A DNA stretch of 62,582 bases, counting the filler, from Perkinsus olseni (lineage: Eukaryota), in the NCBI GenBank assembly GCA_013115125.1. It is 9 parts of 9 records of this genome, joined end to end, with 100 filler letters (N's around TTAATTAATTAA, not from the genome) between each part and the next. Parts side by side here need not be neighbours in the genome. Positions count along the whole stretch, not along the records: positions 48,818 to 55,653 come from JABANN010001064.1; 8 more parts are not named here. The stretch is one strand, 5' to 3'. Positions within the stretch are counted from its first letter, which is position 1, and each line of letters opens with the position of its first letter. Shown here in pieces: positions 11,746-56,299 of the stretch. The notes beneath the pieces are model-generated. The model was not told the DNA's origin, did not search any database, and saw only the letters and a list, made by a program, of their open reading frames with translations. The position numbers and the translations under genes were made by a program.

Positions 11746-13279
11746 TCACAACGGCAACCCTCCCCACACTGACGTCCCAGACCCCACATCACCAACAAGT
11801 AACAACACAGAACACAGCACTTTGAACACGTAGAAGGACATCATCCATGCCACTGCCATAAGGTAATGAAAGTTTCTATCGTCTACGAGATTTCGATGAT
11901 ACGGACTTTGGCTGGCTCTGCTTGATTTGCCAGATAAGTTGGTACGACATGTACGCTGGGGGAGGCAGAGACTCCTCGTACTGACAGGCAAACCATAGCG
12001 GACAAGGCAAGGAAGAAGGGAGTACATTTCCGAATATCCACGGATGTGTGTTGTAGGGAGAGGTAAAGAAAGATGCTGGCACATCGCCCAGTATCTTGTA
12101 CGGTTTGTCAGCAGATGGTAAACCAGCGTCCGATGAGGCCCTTCGCCCGCTGAAAAAACAGGATGGAAGTGATCACAGTAGCAGTGGTAGTACCATGCCT
12201 TGCAGTATTCACTTTCCTCCGACACCTCAGTGACAGAAGCCCTACCCTTATCTTTGCTATCATCACTAAGACACTCATCGTCCTCGGTGCCAGGTACCGC
12301 TGACTCCTTATCAAAACAGGCGCCCACTCCCTCGGGTACCAACTCCCCTCCCAGCAGTACTAACCTCTCCTCCCCGACCTCACCAGCGTGTTTCAATTCT
12401 TCTGTCTTCTCCAGCAAGAGGCCCTCCTCATCACTACCTTCCTCCCCCTTCGGGTCTTGTATCAGTTCCCCTTCTCTCTCCCCCAACAAGCTCCCCTCGT
12501 CACCCCCTCCCTCCTGATCATCAGCTACCCGCATCCCTTGACTCAGTGACAAGACCCCTCCCTCTGAACCCCGCTCGGCGTCTTCGCCAATAGCAACCTC
12601 ATCATCACCAACTCGTCCAGACTCCCCTAGGCCATCCGATGCAGCCCCATCCTCACCCGATAAACGCTCTTCAACAGCCGCATAGAGCTGCCCTTCCTCC
12701 TCCCCGTTCGCAGTAAATCGGTCCCTAGCCGGAGTGGGAGGGGGCAGCTCAGCAGCGAGTGCCTCCAACGCCTGCCGACCCTCAGCTTCCTCGTCATCTT
12801 CAATCTCAGGCGGTGGCGCGTCCGGGTTCAACACAGATACTCTCCGCTCGTCCCAAATTGCAAGATAGAGTTCCTTCAGATCGTCTAAGTAGATCTGACC
12901 TGTTTGAGCAGGGTCCAACTCGTCCAACACTATGGCATAGAATTCCTCCGTCAGGGGAGTCCGCAGACCGTGAAACCTGCGGGAAACAGCGATGCAGCCG
13001 CAAGAGGGCAGGGGATTCTGAAACGACGGGTTGACTTAGCTACACAGTAACCTTCAAGACGACAACATTGGGAGAAGTTCAGCATACGAGATGGCCAAGC
13101 TGGTGTCGTTTCAGGAGGCTAGCCTGGGTTCAGGATAAATGCATCCGCCTTTTCGACACTATGTGCCTTCAGCTATCAATTTACTCGGCTACACCGTAAA
13201 TGCCTCACAGAAAGACCTTACCGCGCTCCAACGAATTGTGACGCGTCCAACTCTACTGAAATGAAGGGGGCGCTTCATT
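11746..13279 (-). CDS. Multi-exon EF-hand-like protein with acidic low-complexity region
   Basis: LDELDPAQTGQIYLDDLKELY resembles an EF-hand loop. An acceptor TTCCCGCAG lies near 12977, with a long Glu/Asp/Gly-rich tract downstream. Both ends are uncertain. Confidence 0.55.
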
Positions 13280-13996
13280 CCCGCTGTGGACTTTAGTTTG
13301 ACCACCAGCAAAACATGTTTTTTCTGCTGAGTGAACCGGGTCGTTTATCATTCAGGCATGCAAAAGACTAGTACGAGTATTACTACATTCTGATGGCATC
13401 ACAGAAGCCGTTGCACTCTCGGTCATTCAGAGCCCCATCACCATTCAAGTCGGCCTGCTCGAACAATTCCCTTATCTGCCAGCATCAACCTAAGATACCC
13501 AATATTCGTATCCATATTACCTCATCATCATTCAGCGGATTGGCGGTGGCCGATCGTATCTGCCGACCACCCATTTGCATGAACGCGGACTGCTCCGAGA
13601 CACACATTGAGCGTTTTTAGGCGCGCTAAAGCAGCCATTTATCGGATTGTCTCGCGCACCTACCGACGATTATACTTATCGCTGAGCGTGATGGTACCAG
13701 CGTATCTAAAACGTATCTCACACTCCAGTTTTGTAACAGGTGATGTTAATCGGGCATCATACTGGTGACAGCGGTTTCTAGTTCGTTCGGGTGATTTTGA
13801 TGGGCGTCACCAGAGGCTATCACCGAGCGTGGCTTAGGTGGTTCCCTTTCTCAGTTCCTCCTTCGTTCCTTATCATTTTCAATGGGCCGTGGTCCTNNNN
13901 NNNNNNNNNNNNNNNNNNNNNNNNNNNNNNNNNNNNNNNNTTAATTAATTAANNNNNNNNNNNNNNNNNNNNNNNNNNNNNNNNNNNNNNNNNNNN

Positions 13997-16900: not shown

Positions 16901-19517
16901 ACAGGCATAGTCCGAGCAGGAAGAGTAGCGGTGTGTTGTGTGGACTATAACGTGAGGGCGAGAATGACGTTACGCCTGTCAGTAATAGTAAGGCACCTAC
17001 TCTCGATCCTCTAGAACTATTCTCTCGAAGACACGAGCATCGAACTGACCGCTGACATGACGTTCTGGGTTGGGTGGTATGCCTGTTATACATAATAATA
17101 CGAGTTATACACCAGAGCATACTGACCATTCGTCTGATATCGACCGAGTAGGGGAGAGTCCGCAGCGCCACTGCCCATAACGTAGGCACCTGAATGATGA
17201 TGCTCCCATGTGAGGCTCCCATGATGATGATGGCAGTGCACTTGTGAAGATCATGAGGTTGTCAGTGAGAGTGCCGGTCTTATCACTGAATACATGGGTT
17301 ACTGATCCAAGCTCCTCAATCAGTGTTGAACTGTTGGATGCAGCACGCAGACCTGACTAGGTGTGGTTGGGAGGTCGTGAGGGAGGGATATGCCGACCAT
17401 TGTGCTGCATGCGGACATCTGCTGATACAAACCTGCCCTGGAAGTACTTGACAATCTCCAATGTAACCTGCCACCGAATGTGTACTGGTTATGAGATAGA
17501 CGACTGAGGGGAGTACCAGCAGGGATATCGGTACAAAGTACGTGAATTGGAGCAGGAGCGAGCCGGCAACACGTAGTCCTCTAGACAGCACATCACCCGC
17601 ATCTACTGACTGAGGGCCAACGTACAGATACCTATTCATAAGCTACGGGGTGCAAAGGGTAAACGGTCATAATACCAATAGTAGGTCGTGGTGGTATCAT
17701 CGTCATCAGCCTTGCTGTTGTCTGTAGTAGTAGTAGTAGTAGCATAGATCCAACCATGTGTGAAGGCTGCTATTATGCATATCATAGCTTGAAGCGTGAA
17801 CAACACAATAACATGTTGGTTATAGGTCTGCATCAGTTTACTTATCTTATTCCTTCCCGTACCTAACAGCAGCTAGGGAAGAGAGGCACATGAAGGTTGA
17901 GCGATACCTGATTCGGCGGAGTTACGGTATATCCTAGTGTTCATACCACAGTAGACCACAACACCATAGGCGTACTTGCCACTCATACATGACTGTAGCG
18001 ATGATCCACGCAATAGTAATTGATCAATACTCAGAGGGATGCTGCTCACCACACCAGGCGGGCTACTGCTGCCTCCACCGCCTGAACACTGCTCATTTTC
18101 GTCGCCCAGCGCCGAAGGGTGATACAACAGCTGCCCTTGGAACTTGTACAGCTGAGAGTTTGGGTTTTCGTAGTGCAGCTCTGCACGGAGATTGAGGATG
18201 TTCTCCTCCAGTGTACTAGCAGCAGCTGTATTCTGTTGTAACGCGGTCTGTAGTGTCGGACTGCATATCTTGGGCTTGAGATTCGTCTCACCATCAAGGT
18301 TCATAGTTTCGACAAATATCATACCACTAGGGTCATCACAAGTGAGCAGTACTAGATCAGCAGGGAACTGTTCACCAATACCGATCCTAACCACGTCGCC
18401 AACCCTAAGCTCATCCCAATGCACCGTCTCAATCGACATGCTGCTGCCTCTGTCATGAATGATACCGGTATTATTGTGGTCAACATCAGAGCACCAACGA
18501 CGTAGTCGATGCACCGTCCTTTTATTCTCATAATTATCATTATTATGTCTTTTGATATCTTCCATGATGTCCCGGACTGCAGCCACTGTGATTACGAACA
18601 GGAGTGGTATCAACAGCAACGGTCTACCACCAGAATCGCTGATAGCTGGTATCATTTGTAAAGCCGCAGCACACAGAAAATATACATTAGCAAATAAATG
18701 TAATTGATACCATAAATTCTTGGGTATGAATGATAATATGGTGTACTTGGATGTCCTTACTCTATTACTCCACTTCACATTGCTGACCTCAGGATGATGT
18801 ACGACTGCCTTAACGGTACTGATGACAGTATTTTTACCATTAGTATGACCAATGTAATTCATGGCTGTATTTTTCATAGCCTTAATATTGTCTAGTAATC
18901 TCTTCCATAATAAAGTATACCGAGAGGTATCTTTCGTAGGTTCTTCGTTGATACGTACGACTACCTGTAAAGATCGTTGTGATAATGACTAACACATGGC
19001 ACCACTCACTGATTTAATATCATCAGTATCGCCTTCGCATGGCGATGCACCAACTCCGGGCAAGACATTCATGCTGCAATCGATTACAGCCGATGACGGC
19101 GTTGGCAAATCTTCATCAGTAGCCGCTGTGCCAGGGCAATCTTGCGCACTTGCTGTGTCTTACGTATTTCCTAACGCTCTCGGCACAGGCCAACGTGAGA
19201 AGAGCCGAGTTGGCCAACCGGGAGGTATGGAGTACGCGGTTGTATTTTATTGAGTGCGAGGAGCCCACCTCATAGTGGAGCAGCGCTGGAAGGAGGACAT
19301 GATGGTACTAAGGGGAATACGCGAGCATGCGGGCATTCTTATCGGTATGATGGTGATGATGAATGTAAAGGTATACGTTACTGCGGCTCGCAGCATCACT
19401 ATAGGAATGGTTATAGGCGCTGCATTCATTTAATCGACTGGCACATGCTCGCCAGGTACGGTTACCTCTAGCTGACTGTTCAACACCAGGACCATGCGGG
19501 GATAATCGAGGCTGCAT
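13997..19517 (-). CDS. P4-type ATPase (phospholipid flippase), multi-exon, 3' truncated by contig end
   Basis: [42 protein letters not shown] (about 17265-17293), [40 protein letters not shown]...YNVIFT. The start codon is tentative. Confidence 0.96.
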
Positions 19518-20881: not shown

Positions 20882-21488
20882 NNNNNNNNNNNNNNNNNNN
20901 NNNNNNNNNNNNNNNNNNNNNNNNNTTAATTAATTAANNNNNNNNNNNNNNNNNNNNNNNNNNNNNNNNNNNNNNNNNNNNTGAGTGATACTGAGAACAG
21001 TGAGATCACTGCAAGAGAGCAAGAGAGCAAGCGCGATGACTCAGTTCTCACAGCGCGGGCAATCGATCACTGTGGCGAGCGCGAAAACTTCGACTACCAC
21101 AACTGTTTAGCAGTTTTGTGGCATGCTATTTTCGCTAGTGCCGCTAATTGATTTTTCCCTTTTCTAATTGTAGCCCGATTTGCGAAAATTCCGCGTCGGC
21201 TGATCGGTCACGCCAGGCGTGGTCGTCTCCAGGTTTTCTCTTGCTAAATTCGACACAGCATTTTCTCGTTTTTCGTATTTTTTTCAGACACTTTGGTTCT
21301 CTTTTTTACGCGCTAAATTTAATCGACGGAGTTCTCTTGAAAGTCGGGAGATGCAGTCTCTCGAACAGCCCCATTAATTCTTTCGGGAATTAATTCTTTC
21401 TTTTTTAGAAAAAAGGGAACTTCGCTCCGCTCGACCCTAGTGTTTTTTCAGCTAATAATTTCTAGTTTTCGTTGCTATTATTATAATT

Positions 21489-26992: not shown

Positions 26993-28301
26993 TTACAGGC
27001 TCGTATCATACGAGTTGTATAGCGTGAATCATGAGAGTTGAGTTTGGAAGAAGCTCACGACTGTTCCTCCCGACAATCGAAGGTATGATATATATCATAT
27101 TAATGAGTTGAGCTCACAGGGTTCGGATTTCGGAACCACCTCCTCCCGGCCCCTCACGGCCACTTTTCCATACTATATTATAGTCACGCTGCTATAGGAC
27201 AATATCACGGCCACTGATGGTACATTATCTGGATGCATACGCGCTACGAAAGATTTTTTCTGCTCTCCTTGTTGCAATGGGAATTTTGAATCTCATTTGA
27301 CAGAAAGAGTGCACAGATTGTAAATTCAACGTTTACCACGCCAGTGTCCTCGATGCTGGATGAGCGCTGCCTGGTTTCCATCGCGATTGCAGACACTGCC
27401 ATAGCTGAGAAAAAAACACGAAAGCGCAGATGAGGTGCACATAATCGTCATCTCTTCTGAGAAAGTTATGATCATTTCCGAAGAGACACTTCAAGGAACG
27501 TCATACTGTGAAAAAGACAGCAAGCATATCTTAACCCTTTTGAGGTCTCGAAGTTCGAAGTGCGCCCTCGTAACAGAAGAGGGCTCGCAAACTGATGAGT
27601 GTCACTAAAATAACTACTTGGGCGGAGGTTCTTCATCGTTGATAGGCGGCTCCACGTTCCTAAGGACATACTTATGCCTCACTGACCGACAAAGAGGTCA
27701 AGACAGGCCTCACCTGATTTCTTGGTGGTTCAGCATTGTAGGGGAGTTCCTAAAAGCAGAGTGACGCGCTGATGAATCAGAAGCTCCAATATACAGTGCG
27801 TTCGCTTTTGATATGCAAATCGCAGAAATTGAGCTTTCTCCGTTACTACGGAGCTTTTACGNNNNNNNNNNNNNNNNNNNNNNNNNNNNNNNNNNNNNNN
27901 NNNNNTTAATTAATTAANNNNNNNNNNNNNNNNNNNNNNNNNNNNNNNNNNNNNNNNNNNNATTTCATTTGCACTAACTCCTGGTGCTTTGTGTTTCCCA
28001 TATGACTGACGGTGACTCTTCCCAACAGCAACAGCGCCGACGAAGGGACTGCAAAGTCGCTACGCCCAGCAAATCGAAACTGCAGGAACGGATTTCGCTT
28101 CGCTCCGCCTGCGCCACGAAATTATCAGATCCGGCGTGGAATTGCGACCGTGGCAGGCGGGCTAAGTCCACGTAAGCTCTCATCAGCGGTGAGCCACCCC
28201 TTATGTACGCCAGTTGCCCAACAGCATCATTCACGCTGAGTTGAACTCAGTCGTGTATCGTGCCCTTCTCAGCGTTCCCATTCCTTCAACACTCAATCAA
28301 C

Positions 28302-33590: not shown

Positions 33591-36457
33591 TCGAGACTCG
33601 AACATGCATGACAACCCTTCTCGTCGTATCGGTTATATTACGTGTTTGTAGTGCAATAGGGGTAACCAAACATACGAGAGCGGTGATTGGCCTTTCCCTG
33701 GAGGGCCCTGATGGTTTTTGACGGCTGACTTCTCTCCGGAAACGTTAATCATCGGATTATGTTATCCCTTGGCCGAGTCTTCCGAATGCTAACTCAAGGG
33801 CGTCATCGAGAGTGATGTTAACTACGAACGGGATATCAACCTCGGTATGTTAGAGGCCAAGTTGTAGGATGTGGACTTATCAACTCTCGGAGATTAAGCT
33901 TGAGCTCGGCACACTGTGGGAAGGGCTAGTGTTGAGTGGTAGGACAGCCACCCCAACTGTGGGAGCGGATTCTGCCGGGAGGAAGGAAAGCGTCCCAGAT
34001 TTGCCCTCTGTCTGAGCGCTACTTTCTGTACTCAATGATCAAGCCCAAGCTAATCCCTCTTGAAAGAAGATCCATCGATGCTTCTCTGACTGAGCCAGTT
34101 CTCGGTGTTGGACTCAAAACTCAAACGCGATACGATCGAAAGTTCTTCGAAAAACTTTCCACCGCTCTCTGGGAGAAATCGATCCAGACGGATAAGTTCG
34201 CTCGTAACGATAATCTCGCGTCACCAATGAGATGAGTTACTATTCGATGAAACGGGTCTGTTTCTGATGTACACAGGCTGATGCAGGTTTCTCCCTCTCG
34301 AAGGCTCATACGTGTGTCTTCAAGTCATCTATTGCTTTCTCTCCCCTGGTCATTAACGGGCTGTTGAGGCCACTAATTTGGGTGCAGGTGGTAGACAGTT
34401 GAATCGAGATCATGATCGATTATCAATGAGCTCAGCTTAGCTCGGACCTCCTTGCACTAAAGTGGCAACATAGTGACAACTATAGTGTTAGCTGGGTAAC
34501 AGTTACAGCCTGGTTCGGTACCACTCAGCTCTTGGGTTGCTGCTACTACGTACCATTAGTATCACATAATCATCTTACCTCATTCTGCGCCCTGCACTCG
34601 CGTACATGAGTACACGTACTACACTCAGCTTAGCTTAGCTCAGTAAGCTGTGAATCACATTATTGCTTAGCTCCAGCTGAATCCAAATTTACCTTTCTTT
34701 GATCCCCGTCTCAAATAGCCACACTGTACTGAGTTATAGTGCATCCTCATATGTAGTGAACCGCCTTTTCAATGATTGCCTACTGTAATACATTATTGTG
34801 GCCGATCTGTCCCCATGGCCTGTNNNNNNNNNNNNNNNNNNNNNNNNNNNNNNNNNNNNNNNNNNNNTTAATTAATTAANNNNNNNNNNNNNNNNNNNNN
34901 NNNNNNNNNNNNNNNNNNNNNNNTGTTGATGAAGCTCATCATTTGACTAAGTGAATGGGCAGCCATACGACAGGTGTGTTTTGGATCGTTCAGAATCAGC
35001 ATGTGCCAAAACCGGGGTGGACGTGCTGTGAAATATGAAAGCGAAATTTCATGCTGAAATTTCATGAAATTTCATGAAACGCACGCTCAAATCTTAAACG
35101 CGCTCCGCGCGTCAAGAATTTCGCTCCCCATCGGTGTGGCGCTCAACAGTTTTGCCGGTTGCATAAATGTGGGCAAATCAACGTTGGCAGCCCGCTTAGT
35201 GTATATACTCTGTACTTCCAGATAATATGTGAACACTGTGTGTCCATGATGGACAGTCCATCATCGTGACGAGGACCTCGTCCACATTGTGAAGTTTTAA
35301 TTGATCTGTGCTGCGACCAGTGCTAATTCTTCGCCTGATTTGCGATATGAAAGTTGAATTTGCTGGATCTTGTTGAGCTACTCTGAAGTTCGATTAGAAC
35401 TTTTCGAGTGATATCCACTGGATATTATCCTCTGCGGTGTCTCTTGGCTCAAGGTCGAGTCTTCCCAGTGCTAACTCAAGGGCGTCATTGACTGGAAAAG
35501 CAAGGACCCTTGCTTAAGAGTTCAAGATCGGCGCGAGGGTAATGGAGGAATTGCAAGAGTGCAAGGGCAGGCTGATAATTGGTTATGATGACGATGGCTA
35601 TGATGATGATAGTGTTCGTGATCATGATGATGTTACGGCACGTGCCTGCATTCCTCGTTACTAACTAGGTCTAAGAGTAGTGGTTAGGATACCTGTTTAC
35701 TTCATTCGATTGCTAGTTGTATCTGAGACTGTCCGATACGGGAGCGTCGAGTTAGCGATGCTTTGGGTGGGTACAGTGGATATACCGATACCGGAGCAGA
35801 AGAGATTGACTACGGAGTTAACCATTAGGAAATGAGAGTGATACTAACTACGAATGGGATATCATCAAATAACTCGTACTCATAGTCCGATGATTCGGGA
35901 GTAATCCGCAGCTGCGGCACGCATATGCATAGCCCAGTCCGCTATGTTCCTGCGTGCAGCGGAGCGGTCGCCAGCATATTCATGAAAAGTAGGCTGTGCT
36001 TCAATAAGGAGCCCTTCCTAGAGATAGTGCGGTGCGCAACACCAACCGCACCTCCATAACTAGCCGTATCAGAATAACGTAACGAGAATGTGAGGCCACG
36101 GATTAATAACAGTTATTCCGGAGTTACTCCGGGATATGGAACCCAACTCTGAACCGACGAGATACAAGCCGTGATCAGCTAGCTGTACCAATGGTATTTC
36201 ACCCGGCTCTAACACCATGGTACTTCCATGATGCTGGTAGACCGGGTCTACTAGACCCTGGAATCATGGTTTCAAGCCAGGTGCACTCGGCCTGGTTAAG
36301 CGCACTGGATAACTGCGCGGGAGATTGTGTTATTGCCCGGGGTGATCGATTTCATCGTGATGAGATTTCGTGAGTCCGGAGTGTTGCTACGGCCATGACG
36401 CTGTGACGCCTTTGGCCCGCACGCCCGGCGGGACCGCACGCCTGTGACGCTCCATGA

Positions 36458-41759: not shown

Positions 41760-41875
41760 GATGTGATGGAGATCGNNNNNNNNNNNNNNNNNNNNNNNNN
41801 NNNNNNNNNNNNNNNNNNNTTAATTAATTAANNNNNNNNNNNNNNNNNNNNNNNNNNNNNNNNNNNNNNNNNNNN

Positions 41876-41876
41876 G

Positions 41877-41944
<68 letters not shown>
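41876..41944. repeat. (GTT)n microsatellite
   Basis: Read directly at the contig start. Another (GTT)n tract lies at 44163-44217. Confidence 0.97.
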
Positions 41945-42776
41945 ATTACGATTCTTGAATTGATGTTGGATTGGGGCACAACTCCGTTAAGAAGACTGCA
42001 AATGCTACTGCTGAGTCTATTGCCGAATGCTCCATTGCTATATCGAAAGCTATACTATTGACTGATGATAATAATGATCGTTGTACCTTACTAAAATTAT
42101 GATGACGACAATGATGATAATAATGAAGAAGTGTAGTACCCGATGAAAACCTCCGATAACACCATTGTGCATGAATATGAATTTACCACAACGAAATGGA
42201 TGACATAATGATTGCCCTACTGGTGTTGAAGGACCTGCTGCTCTTACCTGATATATTGGATAATGATAATAATAATAATACGGATAGGGTAGTAATGGTA
42301 CATGTGCGAATATAAGACGGCTCCTGATTCTATCACTCAGTTGTGCTAGATTCCTGTCATTCCATGCTGGATTGCCTGATAATGATTATTACTTATTACT
42401 GATTACTCAATCATCATCATGATGAATTAATATTACTTGATACAAATACACATGCTCCACCATCACCACCACCACCATCATGAGCATCGCCACTGTGGGG
42501 AGGATCATCGCTGGTATTAGTATCGTACCATCCAATGCCGTAACCGTCACCATTAAGGAATGGCTGTTTATAACTTTGATGAGGTACGGCCCCTGGGGGT
42601 AGTTGTTGTCGTTCTTGACAAGCGTATCTGTACAATGACACTGATGATAATATTACTATAACTGGCTGATATTGTTATTATTACGATTGTCTTATTATAC
42701 TCATATTAGGTCTAGTAGTTACATCAGCTAACACTACTGCATCATCACCTGATATTAATGCTGTTAAGCGACACAT
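41945..42776 (-). CDS. Class II glutamine amidotransferase (DUG3/EgtC-like), 3' truncated
   Basis: N-terminal MCRL nucleophile, NGDGYGIGWY, PAWNDRNL, IFAH|VRAA, CHPF and FMHNG across short introns. Confidence 0.92.
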
Positions 42777-43185: not shown

Positions 43186-44162
43186 TCAGAATGCTGACTT
43201 ACTATGATAATACCGACCCGCATGGGGCACGCCTGAATGGGGAGAACGAGAATTCAACGGTTGCGCGTGTAATATGATATTACTGTCGGTGTCATCGTCA
43301 TCATTATAATAATAATTGATATATAACTTAGTGCATTGCTCATATACCAGGAAAGTTAACATAGTCTGAGGTCCAAGCCTTATATAATTGGGTAACCACC
43401 CTTTCAACCTACGATGATCATGGATCATCATAATAGCAGATAATTATTGGGAGGCACATATTACAGTGCCATGGGTCCTTCTCTTCGCAGGAGCTTTGTG
43501 ACAAGACTGCTAAGCCCATTGCTGTTCGGTACCACTCCTTTCGGTGATGATGATGATGCCATTAGCATGGTCTTTAATACATCAAATGGTGATGTTATTG
43601 TAGTAGCAACTATACCCGATATTAAACCCGCTACTACGCTTATCTAAATGTAACATGATGATGTATTAATAATGATTGCAATAATCTTACATTAAGATCA
43701 CTGAGATGTATCTTAGCCACCATACTGTTAGTATGGAGATACCCCTTTACTGTGGTATAGGGTCCTATCTGTGATGCTGTTAATAATGCCCCTCGTATTA
43801 CCGACATTGATGTACCCCTCCACAAATTAGAGTAGTCTTGGTGGTGGTGGTGCTGAGGGCATGATGATGGGTAAGATGATATAATTGGTGAAATATGATA
43901 TAGTACATCTTACGTTACATTTACATGATGATCCATCGTAGATGGTGGCTGCTGCTGCTGGTGTCGGCCATGGCCTTACGCAAGCATTATTATTATCAGC
44001 AGCTTGGCGTCTAACTTTAAGGACTTCTAATGGATTACCAATAACAGCAGCCAAGGAACCTATCAATACACGTATTAACTATATAGTACATTATTATTAC
44101 TACCAGATAATAATGCTGCTGTGATACTTATCATAGACGATGATGAAACATTATTATTATCC

Positions 44163-44217
<55 letters not shown>

Positions 44218-44729
44218 AGGTGAGCATACTACGATCCATCATTCCTGTAGGCTGCTGCTTCTCACAAGATGTTTCCAGATATGATTTAATAGGTGAGTAT
44301 CTAGTACAATATGTACAATGATACCATGCAATAGTAGTGCTACTACAATCCAAGCCTAGCACCACCATAAATGGATGCTCTAGCCAATGCTGGTAACCAC
44401 CCTCTGAAGAGCCCACTAAAGCCATCTATATATATTATCTAATAGTATCAAGTACTACATTACCCCCCTCCCATTGGTAAACCTCATTACTTCTTTAGCT
44501 ACATCATAGGCCATCCGTGGTGAGAATGCTAGTCTAGTGACACTACTACCAGCAGTAGTAAGAGAGTGGCCACCACGCTGTTGTTGTAATAATTGTAATC
44601 GCACCTACTAATAATATAATTAGCATGACCTTATTTTATTATTACCTTGACAAGATCCAATGGGTGAGTTATTAATGTGGCGCATGATACTGATAATGAT
44701 GATATTATTATGTGTGTCGTAGTACTCAT
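43186..44729 (-). CDS. Mitochondrial carrier family protein (oxoglutarate/dicarboxylate/UCP-like)
   Basis: Three PxD/ExxK motifs (HPLDLVK, NPLEVLKVR, SPFDVLKT), plus WRGTSMSVIRGALLTASQ and KGWLPNYIRLGPQT. Confidence 0.92.
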
Positions 44730-47830: not shown

Positions 47831-48562
47831 TCATGAGTGAGGATAAAGGATGCCCCGGAAGAGCATCGGTAATGAACCATGATGATGTGATATTACATTC
47901 AACCACATCATACGGCGCTTCGATGAGGTTGATTCATTCTTATGTGTAATGGGGTTGAGCTTGGGATCCCGTAATGTATTATCAGTAGCTGCTGCCTTGT
48001 TATCATCTCTCTGATATAAACTACTCATCATCAACATGTTTTTTCATATCACTACTTCTTGCGGTGGGTGGATTCCTAATTCTGGTACTGATAGATCGTT
48101 GGGGTCTAATTCTGGTATCGGAGATCTTATTATTTTCTCGATTTCTTTTACTGTTTTCCATTCATCGAACCAGATCGTACCTGAATTGATTACCATAACC
48201 TCAGTAAGAATACTCCATCGTTGTTGTTGTTGTTGTTGTTGTTGTTACATCCACCATCCTTGACTAATCTCGTATCAGTACACCCTCTGCCCCTGGGTTT
48301 ATTGCATTTATGAAACCATACCCTTTCCCTAACCTCATCAGCTGCGACTATAGCTATAGCAAGCCCCATATGTCCCGCTCTACCGACTCTACCAATCCTG
48401 TGTATGTACCTGAATAATAATAATAAGGATGAATACATGAACACTGAGTGAATAGACTTTACGTTTGAGCATCATCAGATGGAGGTAAGGTTAACATGAT
48501 TTCGAAAGGTAATCCAGATATATCGATACCACGAGCAGCAACATCAGTACATATCAGGAACC
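47831..48562 (-). CDS. DDX1: DEAD-box RNA helicase DDX1, 3' part
   Basis: [32 protein letters not shown] and the DDX1-type RVWFHKC...[16 protein letters not shown] tail. Confidence 0.88.
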
Positions 48563-48619: not shown

Positions 48620-48650
<31 letters not shown>

Positions 48651-48717
48651 AGTAGTAGTAAGTAGTAGTAAGTAGTAGTAAGTAGTAGTAAGTAGTAGTA
48701 AGTAGTAGTAAGTAGTA
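48620..48717. repeat. (AGT)n / (AGTAGTAGTA)n microsatellite
   Basis: Read directly at the contig end. Confidence 0.97.
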
Positions 48718-48833
48718 NNNNNNNNNNNNNNNNNNNNNNNNNNNNNNNNNNNNNNNNNNNNTTAATTAATTAANNNNNNNNNNNNNNNNNNNNNNNNNNN
48801 NNNNNNNNNNNNNNNNNGCTTTTCTGCGATTGT

Positions 48834-49208
48834 GCGCTGGCGCGCGCTCACTTCACGAGAATAGCGCTCGTCATCACAACTTTCAACGATCAACTGTCAG
48901 CGTCTGATTGGCACGATGCCAGTTGGTTCACCTTACCGGCATCGTGCCAATCTGACGCGATTTTCAAAACTGGCCTGTGGATTTCGCTGATAACTTGCAT
49001 CAGCACGTATATCGGTGAGACTAAGAAAAGTCGATCATAAAAACTGTACCTTGTCCAGCTATCTCGCGCGATATAATCGTTGAAAGTTGTGATGACGAGC
49101 GCTATTCTCGTGAAGTGAGCGCGCGCCAGCGCGACGTGGGTAGCGTACGAACGTCAATTAATGTGTCGTATAATACGACAATACCGCAATACGACTCGTA
49201 TTGCGGTA
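48834..49208. repeat. Nested inverted repeats and palindromes
   Basis: Perfect 57-bp arms at 48834-48890 and 49076-49132. Inner 21-bp arms at 48900-48920 and 48938-48958 (1 mismatch). Palindromes at 49164-49180 and 49182-49208. Confidence 0.95.
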
Positions 49209-49296
49209 GTAGCCGAATATATTGTAATCGTGTACTATATCGTTATTGCCAGATTGATCACTGATGAATTATCAGTATCATTAAGTTAGTAATATA

Positions 49297-52200
49297 ATGA
49301 TACCTGTGAATCACTCGCTTGGACCAGCCAATCTTAACATATACGAAGTCGATCCGGAGCAGTCTGAAGCAAGTAGAGAGTGGAATACTTATTTGGCTCA
49401 TCATGCAGATTACATCAGACGTAATCTTGTTATAGGTAAAAAGGGAGCAATCCGAAGCATTGTTAAGTGATCGGTAGCTAGTTATTACTTTTTTCAGGTG
49501 AGAGATATCTTCTGTCGGAAGGTGAGCTTTTGGAGTATTTTCGTAATGCTCTGGGGGATGGAAATTGCTTCTTTCATTCTGTGATCGCCTCTTGTCTTTC
49601 GGAGAGGACTCTTGGCGATGACAGAGAATTGGGTAGAGCGGTGCATAGTTGGAGTGCTATTGAAATGGGTCGGTTAGTGGAATGTGGGATTTTAGATCGT
49701 GAATTTTTGGCGGACTATTTGGAGTTTTCCGGTGGAACAATAGACGATGCAGTTCGTATTGCACAAACAGATCAAGCTCGTCCGACGATACAGTTTACTT
49801 TGTCGCATCTGATAGGAAGACCTATCGCTTATATAAGCCGACAATCAGCTAATCGCGCAGAAAATCCGAGAGTTGGACTGTACGTACCTACTGATCCATC
49901 ATCGGCGTTGAGGGAGCCGGTTTTTGTCGCTCATGAGTATTATGGGGTTTCGTCATCTGCTGATGGGGGGTCGGGGCATTACATGGTCTTGAGACGCAGA
50001 AGACAAGCACAGCATTTGGCTCCAAGGAGTGATTCGAGAAGTGCAAGCTTACATTGTGAAGGTGATAAGCGAAAAATGGAACCAATATCTGTTGGTCGAA
50101 GTAAGCGGATTTCTATTGAGTAATTTGTTTGGGTTTTGAAGCAGACCATCTCGCCATAATAGTTTGTTGTACAAAATTATCCGTGTATTGAAGTGCGATT
50201 GAAAGGGTGTATAATTTGACTTGCATTAAACCGTGGGCGGTAGTTTTTGCTTTGTCAGATTCTAATCTGGTGGCTTCTGCGGTATTGACTTCACAGAAGT
50301 CGCATAGGGAAAGTACATCGATAAGGAAATTGAGTAGTCGTAAGAGGCGTTGTCCAGAGAAGGATAAATGTCGGTCATGTGGAACATTTTTGGGAAGAGA
50401 TGGGATATGTAGTAAATGCTCAAAACGTGTAGACAGGTCTCCCCATGCAATAGGAATGGTGCATGAAATAAGTGGCGCAATGCAATGTATCCAGAAAAAT
50501 AAGACGGCCTCATCTCGTTCACATGGGACCCATGATACTCTAGAATGTGCACAGAAATGCAAGATATCTTCATGTCGCAAAATTACAATTGATAATGTTC
50601 AACAACGTGCACAAAATAGTAAGGTCTTATCACCTCGTGGTAATACAGCTGGTAATATTTCAAAGTGTGCGCAAAATCGTAAGTCGTCCAAATCTCATGA
50701 ATTGACAACCGAAAATGCTCGAGAGCGCGTGCAGAATAATGAAACGTTACAGGCAGAGGTAGGTGAAAGTCCCACCTCCTTTGGAGATGTTTATGGTTTA
50801 CAAACGCCTCGTTCCCATGTCAACAGCAATAGAGATGGCCAGAAATTAGATAGTTCGTCAGTCGTCATCGAAATGACGGACGTTTTCTTTAATCAGGTGC
50901 AGTTTTATTTCCATGTTCGAAATCATCTTCTTAATGAAGAAAGTGTATTTCATTGTCACAATTGTTTGCGATGGTCAACTGTAGGATATCCTCTTCGATT
51001 GAAAACTATAGCAGCGAAAGACGTTATATGTCGAAAATATGTACTTCTTACGAGAAAATCGAATCGATATTCTGGAAAGCGGGAATATAGTGTATGCGAG
51101 GCGTGTTTTTCGTATATTACTAGTAAACGACGGGAAGGTAATGCTTGGGCGGTTGCTTGGCCTACTTTCATTGCGTATAATTTGGTTAAAGCCGGGTTCA
51201 TGGAAATTTGGTCTTGGATACCTTTGGAATTGAGGGTAGCATGGTTGCCGTCTGTACCATTATTCCATTCGAGTCTGAGTCATGTAACATTGCGAGATCC
51301 ACCTCCGTTTTTCGAAGATTGTACCGAACGGCGATTACATTTACTTGAAGTTATTGATAGAATGCGAGGGGCTGAATTACGGCATGCTCTTAATGAGAAT
51401 TGTGTAGCACAAGTCCGATGTTATTGTGGTGCCCAAGAATTTTTGGAGGATACTCATCTTCTGTCGTTGCAATTCGCGTTGGTTCGTCAGTATTCACAAA
51501 TGTCTGAATTAGGGGTCCTGTTACCTCGTTCGCAAGCAAATAAAGACTTCATGGCAGCATCTAGATCGGACTGGCTTCATTCGTGGATGTTTTTGGAAAA
51601 ATGGAGGGTTGGCCCAAGTGTAGTAGTGGATAGTGTCAAAGGATTGTGTCTTCTTGTTTGCAGAGAACATAAAAAAGGTAGTTTGTTGAAACATGTAAAT
51701 CTAGCGTACAATCCAATTCAATTGAATAAGCCATGTTCGTATCCTGATCGTTTAGGTGGCTTAGTTGTTGCACCACAAATTATTAAACCACTAGTAAAAA
51801 AATACAATGTGAACACTTATGAAGTACTGCGTCTTACTGGATCTTACAGCGGAATGAGCTCTTCTATGTTACACACCAGAAGAAGATGGGACATCACGTC
51901 TAGCCAATTAGCGGAATCAGAGAGGCTTCAGGTAATATGTAGAAGAGATGTTCGCGAACGGTTGAAACATATGTTACTCAGTGGGGAAATTTCGGACGAA
52001 ATATTCTCCTCATTGTTAGAGAGTACGCATTTGTCTGCTGCAGAAGAAACTCGCTTAAATTATTGTAAAAAGTCCGCGACTCTCTTTGATCTTGATAATT
52101 TACTTGATTGTCGGAAAGCATTATATGAAGGTCACTGTAATAGGAGGAATGTCGTGAGTCGTCTCATTGAGGATTCGGAAGGAGAGAAAAGGGTGTCATA

Positions 52201-54170
52201 CAACCTTCCGTGGCCTTTTCGATTATTGAAAAGTTCTTTCAATTCTTGCGTGCAACCCTTAGAAATAGTCCCAAAGAAAATGAAGAAAAAAGGGACGGAT
52301 TCACGATATACGTGGCTATTGTGTACGCTACTAGTCAATGTCTCTTATCTATGGTCGTTGGTTTGCGAGTTTGTCTTATTGTGTGAAAGAGAAACGTGGG
52401 AAGGGCACTTACTAAAATTTATATCGATTAAAATTTTGAAACTTAACATTCTTGCAATAGGAAAGGAAAATCCGTACGCTAAAATTAAGGACCCTTGTGG
52501 TTTGGAAGCTACCGTTAAGTCTGCCTTAGAAGGACACGGAGAAGTAGAAGAAGATATTGCTTCTTATTTAGCTAATCTTCGTACTGTTTCTCGATATGAA
52601 ATAAGCTCACATCAGTTGGGTAATTTACAACATCATGTGGAGCCTAGTAAGTCTTGTAAAATCTTAATATTAACACGTACAGATAAGAGTAGATTGAATG
52701 GTAATGAAATTCCCTCGATATTTGAGTTTGACAAAAGAAAATATATACTACGGTACGTTGGTTTTGCTCGCTCTGCAATAGCGTCAGATAATATAAGCAC
52801 TTTTCATGCTGAGTCTTGTACTACTCCCCTACTATCTTCCACGGAATTCATTCATTATTCATCCGCAACTACATATCCGAATACAGTCTCCTGTATACCG
52901 TCTCAGCTGACCCAACATTGGACGTTATTATGCTATGAGATATCGAACAAAGCAAACTTACGTCAGCATAGAGTTGATTATATGCAATCTATTGACACTA
53001 CAGCTGTATTGTTCTGTACTCGTCATAGGTTACCTCTAGCGAGAGATAGCGCTGACACAGTTTTTACTTGTTGCATTGATGTTCATCTCTCCAGAAATAA
53101 TTGTAAAAGGAAAAGTTATGTTAGGTGTCTTTCAAAATCATGTAGTGTTTGCTTGTGCAGAGAACATTATCAAAATTTTTTCAACCCAAACGTTCCATTA
53201 CCGAGTGAATTATCTCGAAATTTGCCTAGTTCTGAATCTTCGTCTTCGGCTTCTTCGTTTGTCCCTTTTTCGGCTGAAGAACTGTACGATCCGTCATGCT
53301 CTTCGGAGTTGAGCTTTTTGGAGAGTGAATCCTCGTGTGCATTATCATGCACTGGAGCCACTTCTGAAGGTGATAGTAGCGAGTATATAAGTAGTGGGGA
53401 TAGTGTCACGACTCATTCTGATTCTAGTATATCAGAAAGTGGCGTTTCTATCGGAAGCCATTTCGCTGATTCTTGTGATATTCGAGTGATTGAAAATACA
53501 GATAGCTCTCAAGTATTATCTTGTTTTGTAGATGAAGAAGCCGAGAAAACATCAATCCCTCGCCATATAATCTTCAATGTAGATAGTCAGCTCTTGAAAA
53601 GGAATAGTAGAAGAATAACAGGAACTCTTGCTCAGAGACGCTATTTACATTCCATTGTTTCTAATGATCCGGGCAAAAGTCTACCCTTGATAAACTTCGA
53701 AGGTGATGTTTTTCCATCAATATTCTATAACCAAGCTGATGATGGTCTTTTTTCGGGTAGCATTCCGCAATTTCTTTATAATAGCGAGGCAGAAAATCGA
53801 TACTTTGGCTTTGCGAGCGTTGATGCGATGCTGCGCAGCCGAATTAAGGATGGTGCTTCCCTTACCGGAACGGATCCGCGATATATAGCGCATGCGTTTG
53901 ATGCCATTGTTAATTTGGAATTACGCGCTTCAGACACGAGATTGGTTCAAAGTCGGGGCTATGAACATCTCTTGGGTTATCACACTCATAATCCGGCTGA
54001 AAGTCGGATGAGTTTCGATAGCGTCGATTCGCGTCGTCGTATTTGTGAGTTAGCTTCTTTTACTAAAAGTTCTCCTGAGTATTTTTATACTCACACGGTG
54101 AGTATGAGACACCACCCAGGTGTGAGTCCTATTTTCGTGGAAGCAGAAAGGCAGGGGTATACTGATAGCG
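49297..54170 (+). mobile_element. Spliced OTU protease / Cys-rich / Helitron Rep-N-like giant protein, 3' truncated
   Basis: Exons 49297-49435, 49498-50100 and 50259 onward join in phase. OTU motifs GDGNCFFHSV...GHY; many CxxC motifs; EGDVFPSIF, DPRYIAHAFD and ELASFTKSSPEYFYTHT resemble the pre-HUH region of Helitron RepHel. Confidence 0.72.
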
Positions 54171-55560
54171 ATACCAACTGCACGAAATTTGCACAAACGC
54201 GCGGGGTCCCCTCCCCCGCGCTCGGATTGTTTTGTCCCTGTGGGGGCCCACCTAGATGTACCGGGGTAGTTGATGACTTAGTAACAGTCATACAAGATGC
54301 CGATACATCGTTGTTGTTGATCATGCGCACGGCATGAGTCGTAGGCTGTTGTGTGACCGGAACTTCCTCGCTGGTTGATCTTGGGAGTCGGGCCTTGGCA
54401 GATCTAGAGATGGTCTTGTAGATCTGGCTGTGGAATGAGGAAGTCATATCTTCTATACCAGTGAAGATAATAGGACCCGTCACGGTGAACACGATAGCAC
54501 ATTGGAGTTGTTGAAGCGCAGGACAACCCAAGATGACCGGGCTTGATAAGGTGTTACCAGTCACCGCGAAGCGTTCGTTGATCTTAATGTGCTTCGTCTG
54601 GATAGGTAAACTGACGAAGCCGATGATCTGCATGCTATCCGTGTTGGCCACTTTGACGTTAGATTGGGTCTTCTTCGGGAAAGTAGGGCAATCAGCGCCG
54701 AAGATCTTCTGAAGAGTACCGATGGCGATTAATGAGATATCAGCACCGGTATCGAAGAGGACTGGTCTTGTCTCAGGCCCTATCTTCACGATGCCAACGA
54801 CGATATCACAACCAGTTGATGCCTTGGATGATGAGCATGACTTAGGCGTAGGTAGGCCACTGTTCTCGGATCTGTGTTGGATCACACTACACAGTTGGAT
54901 ACAGTTTGAGATAGTCTCAGTAGCCGTAGTCAAAGTGCTCGTATCCTGCCGCATCGTGATGGTGTTAGTCTGATTGTCGTTGGGAATATCTTCGTCACTC
55001 GATTCTTCTGGCGCATCGTTGTGGTCATTGGGGTCGATACCAGAGATCTTCACATTAGGTGTTGTGGGGGCTGATGTCGGTAGATCGGTTGTCGTTGATG
55101 ATGTCGTGGCTTGGGCAGTCCCACTGGATTTGCCTTTGCCCTTAGACGCTGCCTTCCCTTTACCCTTGGATCCCTTGTTCCGGGATGTGGAGGTAGGTAA
55201 CGGATCCGGGCACACATAGGCTAGGTGACCTTGTCGACCACAGCGATGACAAGTAGCGGTAATCGATACGTTGCACTTATCGATACCGTGAGTAGGATTA
55301 CCACACCGAGAGCACCGATCGTCCTTCTTGCCGACATCATTGGTACAATCTCGTGCTGGATGTCCATCTTGTAAGCATCGGTAGCACGTGATAGATTGTT
55401 GATCTCGAACTACCGCGTAGACGTAATAAGTGTCATCGTCCGGATGATTGGAGCCAGGCAGATGCTCGATATCTTGATCTTCTTCAACAGTGTCGGTGCC
55501 CATGATGTGGTTGACAGTAGCATTGTGTCGTTGATCAGGGAGTCGTCCACCATATAGTCT
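54170..55560 (-). mobile_element. Gypsy-like gag C-terminus (3 CCHC knuckles) plus aspartic protease
   Basis: CYRCLQDGHPARDC, CSRCGNPTHGIDKC, CHRCGRQGHLAYVC, then VLFDTGADISLI...VILGCPAL in ORF 54091-55503. Confidence 0.92.
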
Positions 55561-56299
55561 CAGAGTAGCAGGATCTACTTCCTTCTTGGTGGACGGAGGC
55601 CTCGCTCTATGCGGGGTACCTCACAAATGTAGCGGCCCGAGCGGGGAAGGACCNNNNNNNNNNNNNNNNNNNNNNNNNNNNNNNNNNNNNNNNNNNNTTA
55701 ATTAATTAANNNNNNNNNNNNNNNNNNNNNNNNNNNNNNNNNNNNNNNNNNNNATTTGGAGCCGGAACCCCATGACTCAATCACTTAGAGCCCTAGAGCC
55801 GGGGCACGTAGCTGTCTCTGACACCTGATCCATCTGATTTGTCCTTCGGTACTGGCAGTGAAAGCGGTAGGAGAACGAGCTACGCGCAAAGAAGTGTAAA
55901 GATGCTCTTCCCTTTGAGCATTTGTAGACCAGCCTTCCATAAAGATCCGCGGGGCGAATTTCGCCCTCTGCACTTGGCAGACGCCTGCCTGGTATTGAGG
56001 CACGGGACAGCACGCATAAACGAGACGCGTGTTTACGACCAGTGCGGGGGGCATCTATCAACATCGAAGGTAGGTGCACTGGCCGGCCCTTGCCGAGCCG
56101 AAGATCGTTGCTATACACGAGTTCTAAGTTACGACTAGTGGCTATCCCTTCTTCCCGTCTGTGAGACAGCACGACAATTCACAGGCTTGAGTCACTTGAC
56201 GGAGCCCCTGTCGGCTTCCATCGCGGAAGGTCATGCACCACCTTGCTTCTGCCCAGTACCACTCACACAACAAATAAGCGTTGGTCCATGGGTTCATTA

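Follow-up and report, generated by a model that had tools for sequence, protein, structure and literature searches.

The Helentrons (HLE2) of animals and fungi carry a RepHel protein with a C-terminal AP endonuclease, often together with an OTU protease. The features they share with the lineage described here comprise an HUH/two-tyrosine Rep nuclease and a PIF1 helicase within one giant protein, a third domain, a nuclease, at the C-terminus of that protein, and an OTU-like protease upstream of RepHel; at Helentron ends, palindromes and inverted repeats are described in the accessible portions of two reports (PMC4067079, PMC11417382). The differences concern the third domain, which is AP/Exo_endo_phos in Helentrons and an SLX1-like GIY-YIG nuclease in the relatives of the protein studied here, and the ~1300 amino acids that stand ahead of the Rep motifs in this lineage. 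Canonical Helitrons (HLE1, the plant, bat, and fungal RepHel proteins) display the same order of FP..F, ..FD.., F.T.T, HUH, and Y..KY before the helicase, and Helitron_like_N and PIF1 of Pfam are matched in our relatives as well, but the canonical proteins have no nuclease domain and a shorter N-terminus.

GIY-YIG has been reported together with RepHel in HelenSM92, an HLE2 element from the moss Sphagnum magellanicum. In the accessible text of the HELIANO paper (PMC11417382) it is treated as a captured domain of one family, in contrast to its stable C-terminal position reported below, the two being likened by description only; no other printed case in a Helitron-like element was found in the searchable open literature. 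According to the same portion of that paper, OTU ahead of RepHel had already been published for both Helitron-like groups, a precedent missed by the initial annotation of this DNA. VTD domains of zebrafish Helentrons cleave ubiquitin chains, and OTUs replace or accompany these VTDs; in the accessible part of this work (PMC9741609) the authors left the activity of transposon-borne OTUs as an open question. Whether such OTUs are active deubiquitinases can now be tested.

The window, i.e. the whole stretch of 62,582 nt from Perkinsus olseni that was analyzed, is a chain of ~6.9-kb contigs joined via N44-TTAATTAATTAA-N44 linkers, a structure overlooked at first. An OTU-like ORF and a giant ORF lie alone on the contig 48818-55653. 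With a probability of about 0.85, the 5.0 kb from 49133 to 54173 on this contig are the 5' portion of a Helitron-like rolling-circle transposon with an OTU-like gene ahead of its transposase gene, present as a truncated copy. The copy is dead, a fragment of a Helitron-like member and not a working member, and the element is of a known kind, from an unusual and little-described lineage. Its features are as follows.

48818-49132, strand not assigned: left flank, nested inverted repeats of a high-copy repeat (arms 48834-48890 and 49076-49132, inner hairpin ~48907-48953)
49133-49296, + strand: untranslated stretch of the element fragment ahead of exon 1, containing small hairpins
49297-49435, + strand: exon 1, from the ATG, 46 codons plus one base, joined to exon 2 by splicing in run X6
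49436-49497, + strand: intron 1, 62 nt, GTAAAA..TTTTTCAG, removed in the RNA-like run X6
49498-50100, + strand: exon 2, OTU-like cysteine protease (GDGNCFFHS at 49554-49580, GSGHYMVL at 49968-49991)
50101-50258, + strand: proposed intron 2, 158 nt, GTAAGC..TTTGTCAG, in phase
50259-54173, + strand: N-terminal ~1300 aa of a RepHel-type transposase, ending before the HUH motif (687 relatives, best E 1e-82)
50369-50419, + strand: zinc-ribbon-like motif CxxC-x10-CxxC after a basic stretch, conserved in the relative P0152 and upstream of the ATG at 50456
50948-52450, + strand: conserved block A, 501 aa, with near-invariant Cys, His, and Trp columns (alignments, predicted fold)
53015-53458, + strand: Cys cluster (53015-53179), then Ser-rich linker (53228-53458), the Cys columns being conserved in alignments A2 and A5
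53699-54172, + strand: start of the Rep domain, with FPSIF, DPRYIxxAFD, and the first Rep motif YFYTHT (54074-54097), aligned to relatives
54174-54252, strand not assigned: 79-nt piece of the left-flank high-copy repeat in the other orientation
54253-55503, - strand: LTR-type retroelement fragment, gag with CCHC knuckles and aspartic protease (zf-CCHC 2.4e-5, RVP 5.4e-3)

The giant open reading frame and its relatives

A search with the residues encoded by 50570-54169 returned 687 relatives (cluster representatives) at E ≤ 1e-3, 80 of them at E ≤ 1e-30; the likeness spans 50930-54172, and P0152 is 50% identical over 50744-54199. In full-length relatives (2300-2900 aa), the protein runs on into a Rep of the HUH/two-tyrosine type, followed by a PIF1 helicase and, at the C-terminus, by a GIY-YIG nuclease; the giant ORF is therefore the N-terminal half of a Helitron-like transposase. 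Its initial assignment to the N-terminal part of a Helitron RepHel protein has held, and the homologues, far from never reaching HUH and PIF1 domains, carry both. A Pfam scan covering 13 relatives found Helitron_like_N and/or PIF1 and/or GIY-YIG in P0002, P0003, P0004, P0005, P0010, P0011, P0013, P0023, P0045, P0064, P0024, and P0152, and none of the three in P0006. The Exo_endo_phos domain found C-terminally in Helentrons was matched in none of these 13, with GIY-YIG in its place, and DUF6570 in no member scanned. A family HMM, built from 9 of the 44 relatives of at least 2300 aa, located GIY-YIG at the C-terminus of 41 of these 44; the relatives' GIY-YIG reached Pfam E-values down to 3e-10, and P0152 matched PDB chains of PIF1 (1.8e-12) and SLX1 (7.6e-4). 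This domain had escaped the initial annotation.

The C-terminal motifs of the window protein, EGDVFPSIF, DPRYIAHAFD, and PEYFYTHT, had been read correctly and correspond to motifs that the family conserves ahead of HUH. They line up, column by column, with relatives in which Pfam Helitron_like_N is matched and in which the motifs matching 53699-54172 stand just before PHxHxLI and RYxxKY, both kept in 6/6 aligned relatives; this segment is thus homologous to the N-terminal Rep region and first Rep motif (F.T.T) of RepHel proteins. The window ORF itself gave no Pfam family match, Helitron_like_N included. The HUH motif and the two catalytic tyrosines, present in all six aligned relatives, are absent from the window copy, which is cut at 54173, as are the PIF1-type helicase that follows Rep in relatives and the GIY-YIG core; a search of the whole window found no Rep, helicase, or GIY-YIG coding sequence elsewhere. 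On the sequence evidence, the HUH, tyrosine, helicase, and GIY-YIG parts of the window element are known from its relatives alone.

The ~900 aa of Cys/His-rich sequence noted earlier as unrecognised are conserved and correspond to no known family or fold: the middle region has no Pfam or Atlas match, and its 501-aa block A is predicted to fold confidently (pLDDT 85.4, pTM 0.82), with a model that matches no solved or viral structure (best E 2.8 in Foldseek against the PDB, best Z 4.0 over 48161 chains, best E 0.67 against BFVD). CxxC clusters and the Ser-rich linker are present in the joined product as described. The 20-aa repeats are not: Tandem Repeats Finder detected no such array, and by eye there are two loosely alike stretches of ~27 aa.

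Intact members of the lineage

Intact members encode one protein of 2300-2900 aa in four parts, the first (~1300 aa) comprising a zinc ribbon, a ~500-aa module without known fold, a cluster of Cys residues, and a linker rich in acidic residues and Ser, followed by the HUH/two-tyrosine Rep nuclease, the PIF1-type helicase, and the C-terminal, SLX1-like GIY-YIG nuclease. The window element has, in addition, an OTU-like cysteine protease gene immediately upstream, whose short first exon is linked via a 62-nt intron. In intact copies, Rep would nick one strand and hold it covalently and PIF1 would unwind it, leading to rolling-circle 'peel and paste' movement as in Helitrons; the GIY-YIG nuclease may take the role of the Helentron AP endonuclease and cut the target or the second strand, and OTU might be a deubiquitinase that shields the transposase or cofactors of it, or else a protease that cleaves itself. 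The window copy is capable of none of these activities; its element sequence ends at 54173|54174, right behind the first Rep motif.

With 687 cluster representatives and GIY-YIG in nearly all long ones, the relatives form a populous Helitron-like lineage. A more far-reaching proposal, which we put forward tentatively and consider doubtful when its parts are taken jointly, is that they constitute a third architectural class of Helitron-like elements, large, essentially undescribed, and residing in microbial eukaryotes and metagenomes, with an SLX1-like GIY-YIG domain parallel to the Helentron AP endonuclease, a ~1000-aa N-terminal region, and, in the branch of this element, an OTU deubiquitinase recruited and spliced to the transposase; perhaps the ~500-aa Cys/His/Trp-rich module of the N-terminal region, with a fold so far absent from solved and viral structures, chooses targets or binds the palindromic ends of the element. 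Two questions have become testable, namely whether a second nuclease (AP type, GIY-YIG type) was gained twice, independently, by rolling-circle transposons, and what role is played by a conserved N-terminal module with a confident, unmatched fold.

The OTU-like gene and the question of fusion

The OTU-like ORF (49530-50123) and the 1376-aa ORF (50207-54337) lie in different frames, as initially stated. A first exon of 46 codons added by a 62-nt intron at 49436-49497 is borne out: GTAAAA stands at 49436, a CAG ends at 49497, and the frame joins OTU. In X6 the joint 49433>49496, its cut shifted by +2, equals 49436-49497 (62 bases, GT..AG), with a spliced depth of 5.3 beside a depth of 11.9 for the unspliced contig; it is absent from all three DNA runs. 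Three GT..AG joints on the + strand, with introns of 55, 61, and 62 nt, occur in X6 only, and the window copy is still transcribed from its + strand. For the OTU ORF there is one near relative only, P0160, whose likeness begins at 49500, the first full codon past the acceptor. Run X9 shows a 1-nt insertion at 49488 within intron 1, tolerated as in non-coding DNA.

The upstream ORF probably encodes an OTU-type protease, judging from its motifs. The GDGNC..H signature noted earlier is present: in translated exon 2, GDGNCFFHS is found at residue 19 and GSGHYMVL at residue 157, in the order and at the spacing of OTU deubiquitinases (nairovirus L-protein OTUs included), in which the D-G-N-C Cys loop and the G-H-Y His motif lie ~137 residues apart. 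The best solved match is, likewise, a viral OTU (6dx2, E 0.019, PDB), and 30/30 named Atlas matches fall in OTU sets (0.92-0.93). The window OTU is very divergent, however, and stays under the Pfam cut-offs: the HMMER-type check proposed at the outset gave a weak Peptidase_C65 (Otubain) match below its cut-off (E 1e-3, 19 bits, cut-off 24.3), no match to Pfam OTU, and, on the window ORF, none to Helitron_like_N. Profile comparison with OTU-bearing relatives (hhalign) aligned 16 columns, covering the Cys loop only, and the structure model (pLDDT 35) is unusable.

The initial annotation was headed by a spliced OTU-RepHel fusion, which here is a candidate only, intron 2 being retained in the X6 contig and the transposase ORF of P0152, the closest relative, starting with its own Met at the matching place. 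GTAAGC at 50101 and TTTGTCAG ending at 50258 do join A|AT to SNLVASA in phase, and the joined length to 54172 is 1552 codons, in agreement with the product of ~1550 aa claimed before truncation. Of the two proposed junctions, 49435/49498 was recovered in X6 but 50100/50259 was not: the contig 49496-54049 of this single RNA-like run, in which intron 1 is spliced, crosses 50101-50258 without a gap, and no joint for intron 2 is listed. At 158 nt, intron 2 would be far longer than the three observed introns. In-phase status alone is weak evidence, 38 of the 152 GT..AG pairs in the interval yielding an open join by chance.

These data would suit two separate products of one element, an OTU protein from exons 1-2 with its stop at 50121-50123, where the ORF ends if intron 2 is not removed, and a transposase whose start codon was lost or is non-ATG, with OTU as an extra ORF as in Helentrons. 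This arrangement has a little less than an even chance. It is consistent with the Met that opens the P0152 transposase ORF opposite position 50264, no more than two codons away from the acceptor proposed for intron 2, with the calling of P0160 and P0152 as separate proteins, and with the literature, where OTUs of Helentrons appear as additional ORFs (PMC4067079) and 17/20 captured domains are encoded outside the RepHel ORF (PMC11417382), each according to the accessible text. Against it, the window copy has no in-frame ATG between 50192 and 50456, the latter being the first, so that fusion via the 158-nt intron is the only observed route to translate the zinc ribbon conserved with P0152; and the GTAAGC donor with its pyrimidine-rich CAG acceptor is the best-consensus pair among the 38 open joins. 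Furthermore, the distant relative P0064 combines OTU (7e-9), Helitron_like_N, PIF1, and GIY-YIG in one protein, and P0004 has an OTU Cys loop within the transposase polypeptide. Contigs lose rare isoforms, even intron 1 being spliced in only ~1/3 of the X6 depth, and the gene callers behind P0152 and P0160 probably worked without intron modelling. For a single OTU-transposase polypeptide, the odds are about even.

Boundaries of the fragment

On the left, the repeat/element boundary is 49132|49133, where sequencing depth drops to element level, as defined by an X5 contig (49102-54201) and an X6 contig starting at 49135. The flanking repeat, whose 57-nt arms are 100% complementary (DNA fold -144 kcal/mol, z -21), reaches a summed depth in the thousands in X5, and in other copies its right arm extends 16 nt beyond 49132; it is probably not part of the element, although its nested palindromes adjoin the boundary. 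Helitron-like termini consist of 5'-TC and CTRR-3' with a 3' hairpin, or of short terminal inverted repeats with TT targets, in both cases without target duplication. The ends of the element were not found for the window copy, whose 3' half is absent. In X7, a 30-nt deletion is seen at 49166, in the upstream untranslated region.

On the right, truncation had been recognized, but its placement at 54170 was off: contigs of X7 and X9 depart from the window at 54173, so that the element breaks at 54173|54174, directly after the first Rep motif, and is followed by the 79-nt repeat piece and then by the truncated retroelement. The joint 48920<>54181, linking opposite strands with 7 letters (CCAACTG) common to both sides, is found in all 4 runs. 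A copy that continues beyond 54173 is present in other strains. An X7 contig of 13148 nt covers 49079-54173 and then 8088 nt more, and the X9 loose end continues in the window frame with DLTRIRDVS, to be compared with NDLSRMRDTS at that point in P0152. Compared with the window, the longer X7 and X9 copies lack 5 nt at 54093, a deletion which would break their frame, and thus no intact copy has been seen. In X9, the 288 nt of 52592-52879 occur in two versions, one with 2 differences and the other with 21. Of the 27 listed coding differences between the window and the X7/X9 copy, 13 are synonymous (0.289 expected, P 0.027), pointing to past constraint.

That the junction is an assembly artefact and the genome holds an intact element here is improbable. 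The contig is small and unplaced, with repeats at its ends, and the continuing copies would fit; however, these copies differ from the window by ~1% plus indels and are therefore other alleles or copies, and the X5 contig, 5100 nt long and from another study, spans the junction, if only by 28 nt where the tool rule is 31 nt. Slightly less probable still is a host gene or role-less captured passenger merely adjoining a transposon fragment: phmmer detected no similarity between the window OTU and the N-terminal ends of 150 family proteins, the OTU Cys-loop motif is rare in the family (3/150 proteins, 0/5 metagenome loci), and in the Atlas the closest clusters are OTUs of haptophytes and giant viruses, yet P0160 (64% identical to OTU) and P0152 each come from a single 13975-nt Logan contig, so that a relative looks to have kept both genes together, OTU and transposase lie, in X5, X6, and X7, on a common contig at equal depth between the two repeat boundaries, the catalytic Cys and His are both kept in the window copy and P0160, and 3/5 listed differences in the OTU exon are synonymous. 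The P0160/P0152 pairing, the P0064 architecture, and the Atlas OTU matches sustain the original view of a rolling-circle element that carries an OTU-like gene.

For genome annotation, it would be best to mask this region, a dead transposon fragment with a retroelement fragment next to it, and not to record it as a host gene of ~1500 aa. The retroelement fragment is truncated at ~54252, with many contigs diverging at 54252/54256 and high depth in X7 and X9. A listed ORF at 54091-55503 extends by chance into the repeat and the element.

The giant frame and its relatives

The OTU and transposase reading frames are found alone on contig 48818-55653 (6836 nt), where their parts are arranged as follows.

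Parts of the element on the contig
49297-49435: exon 1
49436-49497: intron 1 (62 nt)
49498-50100: exon 2, the OTU exon
50101-50258: proposed intron 2 (158 nt), which would fuse OTU and transposase
50207-54337: giant ORF, with its transposase part at 50259-54173
50948-52450: block A, a conserved middle region of 501 aa

The translation of the giant ORF matched no Pfam family and no solved protein. Among 1.84 billion representatives, all of which were scanned, 687 relatives were found at E ≤ 1e-3, of which 365 reach 1e-10 and 80 reach 1e-30; many are 2300-2900 aa long and continue beyond the ~1300 N-terminal residues to which the window aligns. Pfam assigned Helitron_like_N, PIF1 and GIY-YIG in varied combinations among 13 relatives, P0006 being the sole one without any match, and in six aligned relatives the Rep motifs follow the order YF.T.T, PH.H.LI and RY..KY. 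EGDVFPSIF, DPRYIAHAFD and PEYFYTHT of the window match the conserved pre-HUH motifs of these relatives column for column. The Helitron identity proposed in the initial annotation is borne out, since homologues do reach HUH-type Rep motifs and PIF1. An HMM built from nine family members located a C-terminal GIY-YIG domain in 41 of the 44 relatives of at least 2300 aa, with 43 of 47 matches at most 250 residues from the C-terminus, and a cluster look-up gave two members labelled 'predicted GIY-YIG superfamily endonuclease'. Among solved structures, P0152, which at 2519 aa is the nearest relative of full length (50% identity across 50744-54199), matched PIF1 helicases (1.8e-12) and SLX1 (7.6e-4). 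With a probability of about 0.85, we read the finding as the 5' fragment of a Helitron-like rolling-circle transposon with an upstream OTU-like gene. Proteins P0161 and P0163, from the cluster of relative P0010, are each encoded by one 2742-aa ORF that takes up almost all of its contig (8.3-9.4 kb); the transposase is intronless in those organisms, and the element there may be little longer than its gene.

In alignments of 26 and 51 members, block A shows Cys, His, Trp, Pro and Arg columns that are invariant or nearly so, and AlphaFold2 gave a confident model on the 51-row alignment (pLDDT 85.4, pTM 0.82). Pfam returned no match on block A of 26 members save one chance-level Ima1_N, and the language-model Atlas no usable match. 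Searched as a whole 501-residue model, from which a small known domain inside could escape, it found nothing above chance with Foldseek against the PDB (best E 2.8) and the viral models of BFVD (best E 0.67), or with VIA-align (wide) against 48161 representative chains (best Z 4.0). Tandem-repeat analysis gave nothing corresponding to the '20-aa repeats' of the initial annotation.

Alignment A2 of the family contained no stretch conserved enough for a locus search, and no relatives of P0064 (a family protein with an OTU domain) in metagenome contigs, or of P0152 in viral contigs, were found. The search with alignment A5 yielded five distant metagenome loci, at which the only Pfam-matching upstream ORF was a MYND finger. 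At metagenome locus L003, the transposase, a distant family member, is split in two ORFs (9623-12370 and 12640-17856) and is preceded, at a distance of 1.8 kb, by an ORF with a MYND zinc finger (6849-7847, plus strand, 2.5e-9).

The OTU gene and the question of fusion

The catalytic Cys loop GDGNCFFHS and the His motif GSGHYMVL of the OTU ORF are 137 residues apart, and both are kept in P0160, its only near relative. Profile evidence is weak: Otubain, from the same clan as OTU, reached 19 bits (cut-off 24.3), and the best solved-structure match was a viral OTU (E 0.019). In the Atlas, 30 of 30 named neighbours fell in OTU-bearing clusters (0.92-0.93, 179-190 shared features). The AlphaFold2 model, built on a 2-row alignment, had a pLDDT of 35.4.

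We assign the OTU to the element because the Logan contigs that encode P0160 and P0152 are both 13975 nt long and we infer them to be one and the same; because OTU and transposase are found in three runs on one contig, at one depth, between repeat boundaries; and because OTU domains are fused inside proteins of the family. P0064 combines OTU (7e-9), Helitron_like_N, PIF1 and GIY-YIG in a single protein, and weak OTU matches occur in P0004, in the corresponding position, and in P0024, close to the C-terminus. The Cys-loop motif is rare in the family (3 of 150 proteins) and was found at none of the five distant metagenome loci. None of the 150 relatives was matched by phmmer when the OTU, exon 1 or the leading 230 residues of exon 3 served as query, hhalign of the OTU pair against P0064 and P0004 aligned the Cys loop only (probability 1.9%), and no OTU relatives were found among proteins of 351-2000 aa, a range that excludes the proteins of 2300-2900 aa. 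Since neither phmmer nor hhalign detected kinship between the window OTU and that of P0064, sequence comparison suggests that OTU domains were captured repeatedly in the family.

The initial annotation had described an OTU-like and a giant ORF, both of which are present, and had joined them by splicing into one product. The sequence letters at both proposed introns agree with that description: exon 1 comprises 46 codons from the ATG at 49297, removal of 49436-49497 places it in frame with the OTU ORF, removal of 50101-50258 places the OTU frame in frame with the giant ORF, and the joined codons up to the break number 1552, in line with the ~1550 aa predicted. Phase alone means little: when donors within 50000-50122 were combined with acceptors within 50189-50419, 38 of the 152 GT..AG pairs kept the frame open, and the annotated pair 50101/50258 has the best donor and acceptor among these 38.

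Four public runs, none recorded as RNA, were compared with the contig; X6 was taken as RNA-like, being the only one with GT..AG joints (three). Here the two predicted junctions part ways. Intron 1 (49435/49498) is removed in X6 exactly, as 62 nt, the spliced form having a depth of 5.3 alongside an unspliced contig at 11.9, whereas no joint occurs at 50100/50259. The likeness of P0160 to the OTU ORF (64%) begins exactly at the first full codon past the intron 1 acceptor, upstream of which P0160 is unrelated to the window, and this onset lends independent, homology-based support to intron 1. Intron 2, which creates the fusion, is the intron without splicing support in X6: one unbroken contig (49496-54049) includes its 158 nt, and no spliced form of 50101-50258 is listed, a read-through that is not proof of absence, given that assembled contigs can drop rare isoforms.

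We put the odds of a spliced OTU-transposase fusion via intron 2, in this exact form, at roughly even. It is favored by good splice sites and by a CxxC-x10-CxxC ribbon at 50369-50419 that is conserved with P0152; the giant frame is open from 50192 and its first ATG, at 50456, lies downstream of the ribbon, so that translation of the ribbon in this lineage would require either an exon further upstream or initiation at a codon other than ATG. On the other hand, the X6 contig reads through intron 2, whose length is atypical (158 nt versus 55, 61 and 62 nt for the introns spliced in X6), and P0152 has a Met of its own at most 2 codons from the proposed acceptor.

Proposed mechanism and known elements

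For Helitrons, nicking by Rep, unwinding by the helicase and re-insertion of a circular intermediate have been shown. Extrapolating from the named families to intact members of this one, the HUH/Y2 Rep would nick and bind one strand, the PIF1 helicase would unwind it, and a circular intermediate would re-insert. Transposition of Helitrons via such an intermediate is summarised in PMC6431247. By analogy, the GIY-YIG domain probably makes the target or second-strand cut, a step for which the AP endonuclease has been put forward in Helentrons (PMC4067079). The OTU would deubiquitinate host factors or the transposase, or cleave the polyprotein; VTD deubiquitinases borne by Helentrons are active on K48 and K63 chains, transposon OTUs being left untested in that work (PMC9741609).

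An OTU upstream of RepHel has already been published for both Helitron-like groups, and GIY-YIG receives a single mention, in one moss HLE2 family (PMC11417382). Literature on Helitrons in combination with GIY-YIG, with both GIY-YIG and Pif1, or with Slx1 gave no other such architecture, and the supplements of PMC11417382 may hold more. The window copy is a broken member of an already known kind of element, and the lineage, combining an N-terminal module of unmatched fold with Rep, PIF1 and GIY-YIG, may merit description as its own variant.

Truncation and flanks of the window copy

Eight N44-TTAATTAATTAA-N44 linkers (6912-7011, 13897-13996, 20882-20981, 27862-27961, 34824-34923, 41776-41875, 48718-48817 and 55654-55753) split the window, which is not one chromosome stretch, into contigs of ~6.9 kb arranged by falling length; GC ranges from 39% to 58% between the pieces. 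As the contigs are separate, genes on either side of a linker are not genomic neighbours. Paralogues of the element were approached via protein libraries and public runs only. The neighbouring low-GC contig bears long GTT/AAC and AGT trinucleotide runs at its ends (41853-41990, 44136-44253, 48210-48277 and 48620-48717), which probably caused the assembly to break there. A giant-virus or bacterial origin of contig 48818-55653 was rejected because of its spliceosomal GT..AG introns and retroelement neighbour.

In tBLASTn with seven full-length relatives, likeness was confined to 50930-54172, and no Rep, helicase or GIY-YIG coding was found elsewhere in the window. Contigs of X7 and X9, DNA runs from another study and ~1% different, depart from the window at 54173, the X7 record (13148 nt) continuing for 8088 nt beyond. 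The loose end of X9 reads DLTRIRDVS in the window's frame, where P0152 has NDLSRMRDTS ahead of its HUH motif. The departure and this match place a cut in the window copy between 54173 and 54174, a few codons past the first Rep motif; the copy is without everything from the HUH motif on and is only a transcribed relic. X5, a run whose study is not the one that probably supplied the window, has a 5100-nt contig (49102-54201) that spans both boundaries, the right one by 28 nt only. The longer X7 and X9 copies have a 5-nt deletion relative to the window at 54093, in the region of the first Rep motif, which would shift their reading frame, and no copy observed was intact. X9 also has a second variant of 52592-52879, ~7% different.

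Constraint was assessed on 40 listed differences between the window and the X7/X9 copy (165 others exist), of which the 29 from 49334 on were analysed and 11 in the upstream non-coding part left out. The proposed exons contain 27 of the 29, and 13 of these 27 are synonymous (expected share 0.289, one-sided P 0.027), which mildly suggests selection on the family during the divergence of the window and X7/X9 copies.

Features flanking the element
48818-49132: nested palindrome with 57-nt perfect arms (z -21), left flank, a piece of the same high-copy repeat as 54174-54252
54174-54252: piece of a high-copy repeat (79 nt), right of the break
54253-55503, minus strand: retroelement fragment with two CCHC knuckles (gag) and an aspartic protease
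54551-54605, plus strand: intron (55 nt) spliced out in X6, GT..AG joint
54716-54776, plus strand: intron (61 nt) spliced out in X6, GT..AG joint

Other contigs, present in each of the four runs, connect the reversed stretch 49132..48920 straight to the sequence from 54181 on, with the seven letters CCAACTG shared at the joint between 48920 and 54181. These joints indicate that the fragment of the element is flanked by two pieces of one repeat that neighbour each other and are oppositely oriented. An explanation of both flanks by one inversion was rejected, as the way the element continues in X9 is not matched by the 102 nt to the left of 48920. The retroelement fragment is cut near 54252, is without reverse transcriptase, and has a depth much above that of the element in X7 and X9. 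The plus-strand transcript with the 55- and 61-nt introns runs antisense through this gag-protease fragment and may arise by read-through from the promoter of the element together with cryptic splicing; its 61-nt intron takes out the part that codes, on the opposite strand, for the protease active site.
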